Source: Bacteroidia bacterium (GTDB lineage Bacteria; Bacteroidota; Bacteroidia; Flavobacteriales_D; JAUILH01). From it: DNA of 64,000 nt. Numbering within the stretch: the first letter of the stretch is position 1; every line of letters starts with the position of its first letter. The notes under the pieces are model-generated. The model did no database searches. It worked only from the letters and a program-made list of their open reading frames with translations, and was not told the DNA's origin. The stretch lies in the NCBI GenBank assembly GCA_030433115.1, contig JAUILH010000004.1:5516-69515 (forward strand), in the 5' to 3' direction. The translations under genes were made by a program, and so were the position numbers. Below are positions 23,403 to 25,191 of this stretch, in pieces.

Positions 23403-24605
23403 CTAGTACAAGAAGTTGTTATAAGGGTAACGAACCTTGAAAATCTCCTTCACTTCCTCATACAACATGTCCCTGAATTCATCAAAGTTCTGTTTCTTGT
23501 AGGCAGAAATAAATACACACTTTTTATCATTTAATTGAGCCACCCACTGCTTTTTCATTTGTTCAAGTGTGTACTCTGTTTCAATCACATCTCCATCCTC
23601 ATCAATGTGCGTGCGCTCCTTGGAGTAATTGTCAATTTTATTGAATACCACAATGGTTGGTTTATCCGCCCCTTTTATATCGGCTAAGGTTTGGTTTACC
23701 ACTTCATAATGGTCTTCAAAATTGCGATGAGAAATGTCTACCACGTGCAGTAGAATATCCGATTCCCTCACTTCATCCAGAGTTGATTTAAAAGACTCAA
23801 CCAATTGATGAGGCAGTTTTCTGATGAATCCTACCGTGTCGCTTAGTAAGAAAGGTAAGTTGCCCAGTACAACCTTTCGAACTGTGGTATCCAGCGTTGC
23901 AAAAAGTTTGTTGTCAGCATATACCTCACTTTTACTCATAGCATTCATGATGGTAGATTTACCTACGTTGGTATAACCCACTAAAGCGACCCTTACAAGT
24001 TGACCTCTGTTGCCTCTTTGTTGGGCTTTTTGCTTGTCAATTTTTTCGAGCTTTTCTCTGAGTTTCGAGATTTTTTGTTGAATGATCCGCCTATCCGTTT
24101 CAATCTGCGTTTCACCCGGACCACGCATTCCAATTCCACCTTTCTGTCGTTCAAGGTGAGTCCACATTCTGGTCAATCGCGGCAGTAAATATTGATATTG
24201 GGCCAATTCAACCTGCGTGCGTGCATGGGATGTTTGAGCATGTCGTGCAAAGATGTCAAGAATCAAATTGTTTCTGTCCAAAATTTTGACTTTCAATAAG
24301 CGCTCAATATTTCTGAGTTGAGAAGGACTCAGTTCATCATCGAAAATCACGATATCAATGCACTGTTCATCCACAAAACGAATGATCTCGTCCATTTTTC
24401 CAGACCCCACAAAAGTCTTTGGATTAGGTTTGTCCAGTCTCTGAATGAACCGCTTTTTTGTGATGGCTCCGGCTGTCTTCGCTAAGAATTCAAGCTCGCT
24501 CAAGTAATCGTCTACATCTTCAGAAGTAACATCTTGCGTGATTAAACCCACCAAAACGGCAGTTTCTTCAACGTTTTTATCCGAAATTCTCTTTTTCTCA
24601 ATCAT
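23403..24605 (-). CDS. hflX: Ribosome-splitting GTPase HflX
   Basis: ILDIFARHA, GPGETQIETDRR, GYTNVGKST, FATLDTT, DTVGFI, NKID. Confidence 0.97.
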   Translation of the reverse strand: MIEKKRISDKNVEETAVLVGLITQDVTSEDVDDYLSELEFLAKTAGAITKKRFIQRLDKPNPKTFVGSGKMDEIIRFVDEQCIDIVIFDDELSPSQLRNIERLLKVKILDRNNLILDIFARHAQTSHARTQVELAQYQYLLPRLTRMWTHLERQKGGIGMRGPGETQIETDRRIIQQKISKLREKLEKIDKQKAQQRGNRGQLVRVALVGYTNVGKSTIMNAMSKSEVYADNKLFATLDTTVRKVVLGNLPFLLSDTVGFIRKLPHQLVESFKSTLDEVRESDILLHVVDISHRNFEDHYEVVNQTLADIKGADKPTIVVFNKIDNYSKERTHIDEDGDVIETEYTLEQMKKQWVAQLNDKKCVFISAYKKQNFDEFRDMLYEEVKEIFKVRYPYNNFLY

Positions 24606-24862
24606 TAATTCTCTTGAAATTTTTCAGCGTACTTTCCAACAGCTTCAATTTCCTCTTCTGTCAAATAATCAAATGGCGGCATATCTGATGTCCCATTTTT
24701 GATGAAGGACATGATTTGTTCTAAGTTGAGCATTGAATTTTGAAGATTTGCGGATTCCGCATCACCGGCATTACCTGCTTCTCCGTGACAAATAACACAT
24801 TCTCTCTTGTAAATGGTCTCTCCAAACTGCAGGTCTGTCCCTTGTGTAGTCTGTTCAACTAT
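24605..24862 (-). CDS. Second class I cytochrome c domain in the -1 frame of the upstream cytochrome c gene (no independent start)
   Basis: Not in ORF track. Manual translation gives IVEQTTQGTDLQFGETIYKRECVICHGEAGNAGDAESANLQNSMLNLEQIMSFIKNGTSDMPPFDYLTEEEIEAVGKYAEKFQEN*, with CxxCH and an axial Met; its TAA overlaps the hflX ATG. Confidence 0.85.
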   Translation of the reverse strand: MVEQTTQGTDLQFGETIYKRECVICHGEAGNAGDAESANLQNSMLNLEQIMSFIKNGTSDMPPFDYLTEEEIEAVGKYAEKFQEN

Positions 24863-25191
24863 TTTTTTGCTTTTTTTTTCAGCTCATTTCTCACATAGTC
24901 AACTACCAGTTTTACCTGGTCATCGTTCAATGCAGAAACTGGGCGCATCTCACCTCTTCCGTGTTTCACAGCATCAATCATGTCTTCTTCACTCAACAAT
25001 GAAGTTCTTAGATTTGCTGCTCCACTATTGCCTTCATCACCGTATTCTCCATGACATAAAAAGCAAGTCTTCTGATAAATGATTTCACCACTCTCTTTGC
25101 CATCCGGACCAACATATTCCTTCGGGTCTTCACATGAACTCAAGGAAACAACGCCAAATGCGACAGCTATGATGATTAATAAATGTCTCAT
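24859..25191 (-). CDS. Lipoprotein cytochrome c (class I), first domain
   Basis: Lipobox LSSC, CFLCH haem motif, GRGEMRP axial Met; ends in an A-rich KKKAKK* tract. Confidence 0.9.
   Translation of the reverse strand: MRHLLIIIAVAFGVVSLSSCEDPKEYVGPDGKESGEIIYQKTCFLCHGEYGDEGNSGAANLRTSLLSEEDMIDAVKHGRGEMRPVSALNDDQVKLVVDYVRNELKKKAKK

Follow-up and report, generated by a model that had tools for sequence, protein, structure and literature searches.

Runs of nine A or T residues lead to efficient slippage of bacterial RNA polymerase, as set out in passages of two papers (PMC5009743, PMC1088944), and the same passages describe the two systems closest to the one reported here. In dnaX of Thermus thermophilus, transcriptional slippage on nine A/T residues yields both tau and gamma, and in the Shigella flexneri genes mxiE and spa13 an extra mRNA base at a homopolymer fuses two open reading frames (ORFs) and gives a longer product (PMC5009743, PMC1088944). 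The present study concerns a cytochrome c gene on the minus strand of a 64,000-nucleotide (nt) stretch of DNA, hereafter called the window, from a Bacteroidia bacterium of the Flavobacteriales_D (GenBank assembly GCA_030433115.1, contig JAUILH010000004.1, positions 5,516 to 69,515 of the forward strand). The gene stops shortly after a run of nine A's (A9), and a second haem domain follows behind this run in the -1 frame. It is probable that the two domains are joined by a programmed frameshift at the RNA level. On balance, and with less assurance, we favour a single gene with a conserved programmed frameshift site, at which slippage of RNA polymerase would give a mono-haem and a di-haem form of the protein. 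To our knowledge, only a handful of cases of programmed transcriptional slippage are known in cellular, non-mobile bacterial genes (dnaX and some type III/VI secretion genes).

dnaX is a textbook recoding gene, from which tau and gamma are produced, and in Escherichia coli its frameshifting needs an upstream Shine–Dalgarno-like element and a downstream stem-loop. The cytochrome locus resembles E. coli dnaX, where -1 frameshifting takes place on A_AAA_AAG, in having an in-phase, A-rich X_XXY_YYZ heptamer with a stop soon after it, but no conserved downstream structure was found in it, and the whole A9 is conserved rather than the heptamer alone. With T. thermophilus dnaX, the locus shares an A run of 9 nt in a cellular, non-mobile gene, close stops in the alternative frames and two product lengths. 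There, however, the long product is the templated one and the short product arises by slippage, whereas here the templated product is the short one and slippage would add a whole redox domain. As in mxiE and spa13, the ORFs are out of frame and the longer protein would depend on slippage. Those genes belong to type III secretion and lie on an enterobacterial plasmid, whereas the present gene encodes a respiratory-type carrier of an uncultured member of the Flavobacteriales, and its extension appears to be a duplicated copy of the first domain. Finally, tandem PF13442-type domains connected by a hydrophilic linker are also a feature of in-frame di-haem class I cytochromes (cytochrome c4-like proteins, CcoP and the database protein P0029), unlike which the second domain described here can be reached only by a change of frame.

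Results

A second haem domain lies in the -1 frame behind the A9 run

The 0-frame ORF of the cytochrome gene (Table 1) ends with the codons CTG AAA AAA AAA GCA AAA AAA TAG. Its haem domain (domain 1) matched PF13442 (Cytochrome_CBB3) with 45.7 bits (8e-12; Pfam cut-off, 27). In an amino acid (aa) sequence alignment (A2), C43, C46, H47 and M82 of domain 1 were invariant, and the lipobox Cys was invariant across the three species of the genus that are introduced below. The domain encoded in the -1 frame (domain 2) is 35% identical to domain 1 and matched the same family with 52.0 bits (9e-14; Pfam cut-off, 27). Its residues C25, C28, H29 and M64 were invariant in all 15 aligned sequences. The haem motifs and Met residues of both domains were likewise invariant across alignments A2, A1 and A4. 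An AlphaFold model of domain 2 had a mean predicted local distance difference test score (pLDDT) of 87.9. The best structural matches were small class I cytochromes, namely c552, c6 and SorU, with template modelling (TM) scores of 0.72–0.78, and ActE, a mono-haem subunit of alternative complex III, was also among the matches in this range. Judging from the model, domain 2 looks intact and has a fold like that of cytochromes c6 and c552. Both domains are ordinary class I cytochromes c.

The frame that encodes domain 2 is open for 88 codons. The chance of a stop-free frame of this length, given the trinucleotide content of the genome, is approximately 0.009 (approximately 0.009–0.015 per genome when the relatives are included). 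The +1 frame, on the other side, closes after only 7 codons. The 0 and -1 frames overlap for 22 nt (24862-24883), nearly all of it within the A tracts. When the -1 frame was scanned up to the CxxCH motif of domain 2, no ATG, GTG or TTG codon was found, and no hydrophobic N-terminus or signal peptide was seen in the translation of the domain. A c-type cytochrome needs to be exported for haem attachment. Considering that domain 2 has neither a start codon nor a signal of its own, it could work only when fused to domain 1.

The gene layout, with an A9-GC-A7 tract and a paralogous haem domain in the -1 frame, had been proposed in an initial annotation that was made from the letters of the window and a list of its ORFs. 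This description was correct in every detail that we checked. The stretch in which the two frames could be joined had been described as short, in agreement with the 22 nt measured here, and our analysis likewise found neither a start codon ahead of CxxCH nor an export signal for domain 2. The A9 run had been named as the longest homopolymer noticed, and it is in fact the only one of at least nine residues in the window.

Three species share the frame break and the A9 run

The source genome (G000) is a draft of 264 contigs (4.38 Mb, 93.7% complete). Two other species of the genus were available as separate assemblies of metagenome-assembled genomes (MAGs; G001 and G002), and a further genome (G003) represented the sister genus. 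When 41 genomes were searched with domain 1, a match was found in 22 of them, and a second match directly downstream was present only in G000, G001 and G002. In each of these three, the second match lay in the -1 frame relative to the first, with start offsets of 362, 308 and 347 nt, respectively, all of which equal 2 modulo 3. The 3′ end of the 0-frame ORF reads CTG AAA AAA AAA GTC AAG GAA TAG in G002 (domain 1, 82% identical to that of the source genome) and CTT AAA AAA AAA GAC TAA in G001 (71% identical). A9 is thus exact in all three species while its flanks differ, and the 0-frame stop follows it after three codons in G000 and G002 and after one codon in G001. In all three, the run holds the heptamer A_AAA_AAA in the phase of the 0 frame. 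In G001, a TAA formed by the T before the run and its first two A's closes the -1 frame, so that the overlap of the frames is confined to the last seven A's and the next codon. The sequence 3′ of A9 could not be aligned between the species, and the +1 frame closes within 7–11 codons across them. The A7 tract of the source genome was looked for at the same place in G001 and G002 and was absent from both; it is probably incidental. Of the two slippery heptamers pointed out in the initial annotation, the one within A9 is therefore conserved, but the one within A7 is not.

Upstream of the CxxCH motif of domain 2, the -1 frame of G002 contained no ATG, GTG or TTG, and that of G001 contained a single in-frame TTG, nine codons before the motif and without a signal sequence. 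In the sister genus, the genes stand in the same order (membrane protein, cytochrome c, hflX), with a single lipoprotein cytochrome of 102 aa, and the cytochrome locus of this genus contained neither a long A run nor a second domain. In a sample of 401 genomes at the level of the order, 264 matched the domain-2 profile (E≤1e-8), and two matches were found only in the three genomes of this genus. A scan of the genome collection with the domain-1 alignment returned only G001, G002 and one distant match, and a metagenome scan with the domain-2 alignment returned five loci, all of them distant (35–48% identity). By the comparison with the sister genus and the order, the second domain is a novelty of the genus of G000, most simply explained by tandem duplication.

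Domain 2 is old and, judged by its substitutions, under purifying selection

The synonymous divergence (dS) of domain 1 between G000 and G002 was 2.85, and it could not be computed for the other pairs because of saturation. For domain 2, the nonsynonymous divergence (dN) between G000 and G002 was 0.18, and dN/dS against G001 was 0.31–0.42. The frame of domain 2 is open for 88, 88 and 79 codons in the three species, with CxxCH and the Met kept in each, and the linker differs in length by nine codons (27 nt), that is, in frame. By these measures, domain 2 is under purifying selection, and the comparison indicates that it has stood behind the putative slip site since before the split of the three species.

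The initial annotation had put forward two products, a mono-haem one of 110 aa and a di-haem one of roughly 195 aa, made through transcriptional slippage, ribosomal frameshifting or DNA phase variation, and it had named a comparison with relatives as a check on this proposal. In that comparison, the frame break and A9 were conserved in three of three species and domain 2 showed purifying selection, which supports the proposal of two products. The possibility of a recent mutation, which had been left as an alternative, is contradicted because the synonymous sites are saturated and the arrangement must be old.

Long A runs are avoided in coding sequences, and only two of the five compared are conserved

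In the source genome as a whole, 56 A/T runs of at least nine residues were found. The longest homopolymer of this genome is an A18 run at C115:4467-4484. We surveyed codon usage in the 2485 ORFs of at least 200 aa, in which AAA accounts for 68% of the Lys codons. Lys-Lys-Lys was written as AAAAAAAAA in only 5 of 419 cases, compared with 131 expected, and AAAAAAAAG was observed 15 times in the same survey, compared with 62 expected. The avoidance in coding DNA is steepest for A9 itself. According to an argument of Baranov et al., given in a passage of PMC1088944, avoidance of this kind is a sign that A9 is prone to slippage in the genome concerned.

Apart from the cytochrome A9, 11 A/T runs of at least nine residues lie inside apparently intact ORFs of the source genome. 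Seven of these, those in the longest ORFs, were used as controls. No usable orthologue was available for three of them (C166 and C246 had no match, and a partial G001 match of C217 ended short of the run). For the other four, an orthologue was available in each of G001 and G002, and the run was not conserved in three of the four. In one of the three, G001 retains Lys-Lys-Lys but writes it AAG AAA AAG. The matches of another control, C201, were only 54–55% identical and may be paralogues. The fourth run is an A10 in dnaX (assigned by NCBIfam), and it is conserved in G000, G001 and G002. It lies at approximately two thirds of the length of the gene and includes A_AAA_AAG, and stops follow 2–4 codons later in both of the other frames. 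The A10 is whole in all three species despite a change of the preceding codon from GAA to CAA (Glu to Gln). Of the five long runs that were compared within the genus, only the dnaX A10 and the cytochrome A9 were conserved. Considering the avoidance of A9 together with the conservation of the dnaX A10, conserved long A runs may serve as a cheap marker of recoding sites in this lineage.

Another A9 run of the source genome splits a gene for a HerA/DUF87-type ATPase (Table 1). The +1-frame part of this gene continues the ATPase with a Walker-B-like DEAH stretch, and a search of G001–G003 found no orthologue of the split gene, only one weak match (4.7e-4). This break may have arisen by mutation or by error, or it may be another switch. 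The initial annotation had seen no other broken gene, which holds for the window but not for the genome elsewhere. A further candidate for a broken gene, at C103:527-535, was rejected, as it consists of two adjacent genes, the second of which has its own start and a signal-like N-terminus.

Contigs from two sequencing runs (sets X1 and X2) span the cytochrome tract without gaps and contain no length variant, although contigs drop rare variants. These two sets have equal depths and near-identical pieces and probably represent one data set, so that they do not support each other independently. Two other contig sets, X3 and X4, do not reach the tract.

Only short forms were found in protein databases

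Beyond the protein encoded in the window, the database hits were P0002 (from G002), P0154 (seven member sequences), P0155 and P0003 (two members, 68% identical, from a fourth lineage). All of them are short forms, which end 1–3 residues after KKK; in P0154, P0155 and P0003, which come from other assemblies, the end follows after 1–2 residues. No fused form was returned by a protein search that covered approximately 190 aa, the length of a fusion of the G001 type, and none was present among 883 candidates of at least 155 residues searched with domain 2, the latter result being weak evidence. A search of representative proteins found nothing closer to domain 2 than approximately 50% identity, and the matches were mostly multi-haem repeat proteins. 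Domain 2 of this genus has apparently never been called as a protein in the databases searched. An in-frame di-haem protein of the same domain type was found in P0029 (227 aa, 38% identical to domain 2). Since in-frame di-haem proteins of this kind exist elsewhere, a two-domain product is plausible. In the literature searched, from which the supplementary tables of frameshift screens were left out, there was no paper tying cytochrome c genes to transcriptional slippage or poly-A frameshifting.

Neighbouring genes

In each of the four family genomes (G000–G003), the cytochrome gene is immediately preceded by a gene for a 148-aa predicted membrane protein, which had no Pfam or NCBIfam family above threshold. 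The two genes probably share an operon. Downstream, the TAA of domain 2 and the ATG of hflX overlap as TAATG (24603-24607), and the same overlap is present in G002. In the sister genus, hflX overlaps in this way with the stop codon of the single cytochrome gene. The presence of this overlap in both genera fits the view that the end of domain 2 is the original 3′ end of the gene. No terminator-like site was found between the two haem domains; the sole one lies after hflX.

Table 1. Features of the cytochrome locus (positions in the window) and of two other genes with long A runs (positions in their own contigs and loci of the source genome).
Feature	Position	Strand	Remark
0-frame ORF, 110-aa mono-haem lipoprotein cytochrome c, product of standard decoding	24859..25191	-	PF13442 match
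Putative signal peptide with lipobox LSSC, Cys20	25132..25191	-	read by eye from the translation
Haem motif CFLCH, domain 1	25051..25065	-	
Likely distal Met82, domain 1	24946-24948	-	inferred from alignment and fold
TGA closing the -1 frame just 5′ of the A9 run	24884-24886	-	
A9 run (AAA AAA AAA, Lys105-107), proposed slippage site	24871-24879	-	
A7 tract before TAG	24862-24868	-	this species only
Stop TAG of the 0-frame ORF	24859-24861	-	
-1-frame open stretch, hydrophilic linker and second class I cytochrome c domain	24608..24883	-	
Haem motif CVICH, domain 2	24785..24799	-	
Likely distal Met (DMPP), domain 2	24680-24682	-	inferred from alignment and fold
Stop TAA of the -1 frame	24605-24607	-	
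hflX GTPase	23403..24605	-	ATG overlaps the domain 2 stop
Predicted membrane protein, 148 aa	25196..25642	-	4 nt 5′ of the cytochrome ATG
dnaX, 572 aa	G000 C98:2639-4357 (locus L090:140-1858); A10 at C98:3270-3279	-	
Split HerA-like ATPase	C109:8624-8632 (locus L076:112-1978)	+	480-codon 0-frame part and 157-codon +1-frame part

Discussion

In its length, its conservation and the apparent selection on the frame downstream of it, the cytochrome A9 has the sequence-level properties of a slippage site. In the mechanism that we favour, standard decoding would give the 110-aa lipid-anchored mono-haem cytochrome c, with the stop three codons past A9. In a fraction of the transcripts, RNA polymerase would slip on the A9/T9 hybrid and add one A, whereupon ordinary translation would enter the former -1 frame and give a lipoprotein of approximately 195 aa with two class I haem domains. 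Only this fusion would take domain 2 through the membrane to receive its haem. With any other run length, the short form would again be the product, since the +1 frame, too, closes within 7–11 codons. That the polymerase slips rather than the ribosome, that both proteins accumulate and that they do so in some particular ratio is what we infer from the sequences compared.

Several observations weigh against this interpretation. All of the genomes are MAGs, and the arrangement is known from only three species, all of them kin. The support for A9 at the level of reads consists of two contig sets with a depth of approximately 5, apparently from one data set and perhaps from the source sample. Nine or more A's are tolerated inside the 11 other apparently intact ORFs, and the split HerA-like gene means that a break at A9 proves nothing when taken alone; such breaks may arise in the source genome as plain mutations or errors. 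Domain 2 of G001 is strongly diverged (34–39% identical to the others, with the dN/dS of 0.31–0.42 given above). Lastly, A_AAA_AAA is in phase in all three species, so that a -1 shift by the ribosome is possible.

The last point leads to programmed -1 ribosomal frameshifting on A_AAA_AAA, in which the mRNA would keep A9 and the products would be the same. The genus holds the E. coli dnaX heptamer, A_AAA_AAG, inside the A10 of its own dnaX, and in the source genome a second A_AAA_AAA stands directly before the stop of the cytochrome ORF. Slippage of RNA polymerase is nevertheless favoured, because nine A's are conserved in full where the seven of a heptamer would serve a ribosome, because dnaX keeps its full A10 across the Glu-to-Gln change (GAA to CAA) and because A9 is the pattern most steeply avoided in coding DNA. 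It is also favoured because no RNA structure that is conserved or unusually stable was found downstream: the sequence after the run is unalignable, and the 91 nt that follow it folded no better than shuffled sequences in the three species (z-scores of 0.11, 0.25 and -1.06; pseudoknots were not searched). We therefore regard ribosomal frameshifting as rather unlikely to be the explanation, and it may contribute to a mixed mechanism. A change at the level of DNA, in which replication slippage would toggle the run between A9 (mono-haem) and A10 (di-haem) in subpopulations, is improbable. All three DNA sequences have A9, four database clusters stop immediately behind KKK, the searches for a fused form were negative (one of the two being weak) and the contigs of two runs contain no length variant. 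These results outweigh the split of a second gene of the source genome at A9 and the hypermutability of homopolymers of such length, which is described in a passage of PMC1088944.

The remaining explanations deny that the frame change has a role. If a frameshift had cut an ancestral di-haem gene, only the mono-haem protein would be made and domain 2 would be a relic, as the strong divergence of the G001 copy and the possible occurrence of plain breaks at A9 might suggest. We consider this very unlikely, because the open frame, CxxCH and the Met are kept, dN/dS is low and the chance of such a frame is only approximately 0.009–0.015 per genome. Moreover, the break predates a species split at which dS is saturated, the frame has remained open for 79–88 codons, nonsynonymous sites have changed far less than synonymous ones, the length of the linker indel is divisible by three, and the gene of the sister genus is single-domain and not di-haem. 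An assembly or sequencing error, with a true tract of A10 and an ordinary in-frame di-haem cytochrome, had been allowed for in the initial annotation; the draft consists of 264 contigs at a depth of approximately 5, homopolymers are error-prone, and another gene of the same genome is broken at A9. Such an error is extremely unlikely, since A9 was obtained in three assemblies of different species, apparently from different projects and assemblers, and truncated calls also come from further assemblies. In addition, the dnaX A10 was resolved in frame in all three assemblies, which argues against a systematic loss of one A. The least probable explanation is that domain 2 is a separate gene with a non-canonical start. 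Haem attachment requires export, and none of the three species has a hydrophobic N-terminus in front of the domain; neither G000 nor G002 has an ATG, GTG or TTG before the CxxCH motif. In favour of a separate start, an in-frame TTG nine codons before CxxCH is present in G001, and A-rich leaders favour initiation in Bacteroidetes, as stated in the abstract of PMC6847099.

Under transcriptional slippage at the conserved A9, the novelty lies in the gene family and in the predicted outcome, a lipid-anchored electron carrier that can optionally bear a second haem domain. It is nearly as likely as not that slippage on A9 is a recurrent way in which bacteria build modular c-type cytochromes, with the ratio of short to long forms set by the polymerase. 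If the proposed mechanism is true, one gene would give two cytochromes that differ in their number of haems, of which annotation pipelines see only the short one, and reconstructions of respiratory chains from the genomes of uncultured bacteria would overlook di-haem carriers that are hidden in this way by a poly-A tract.

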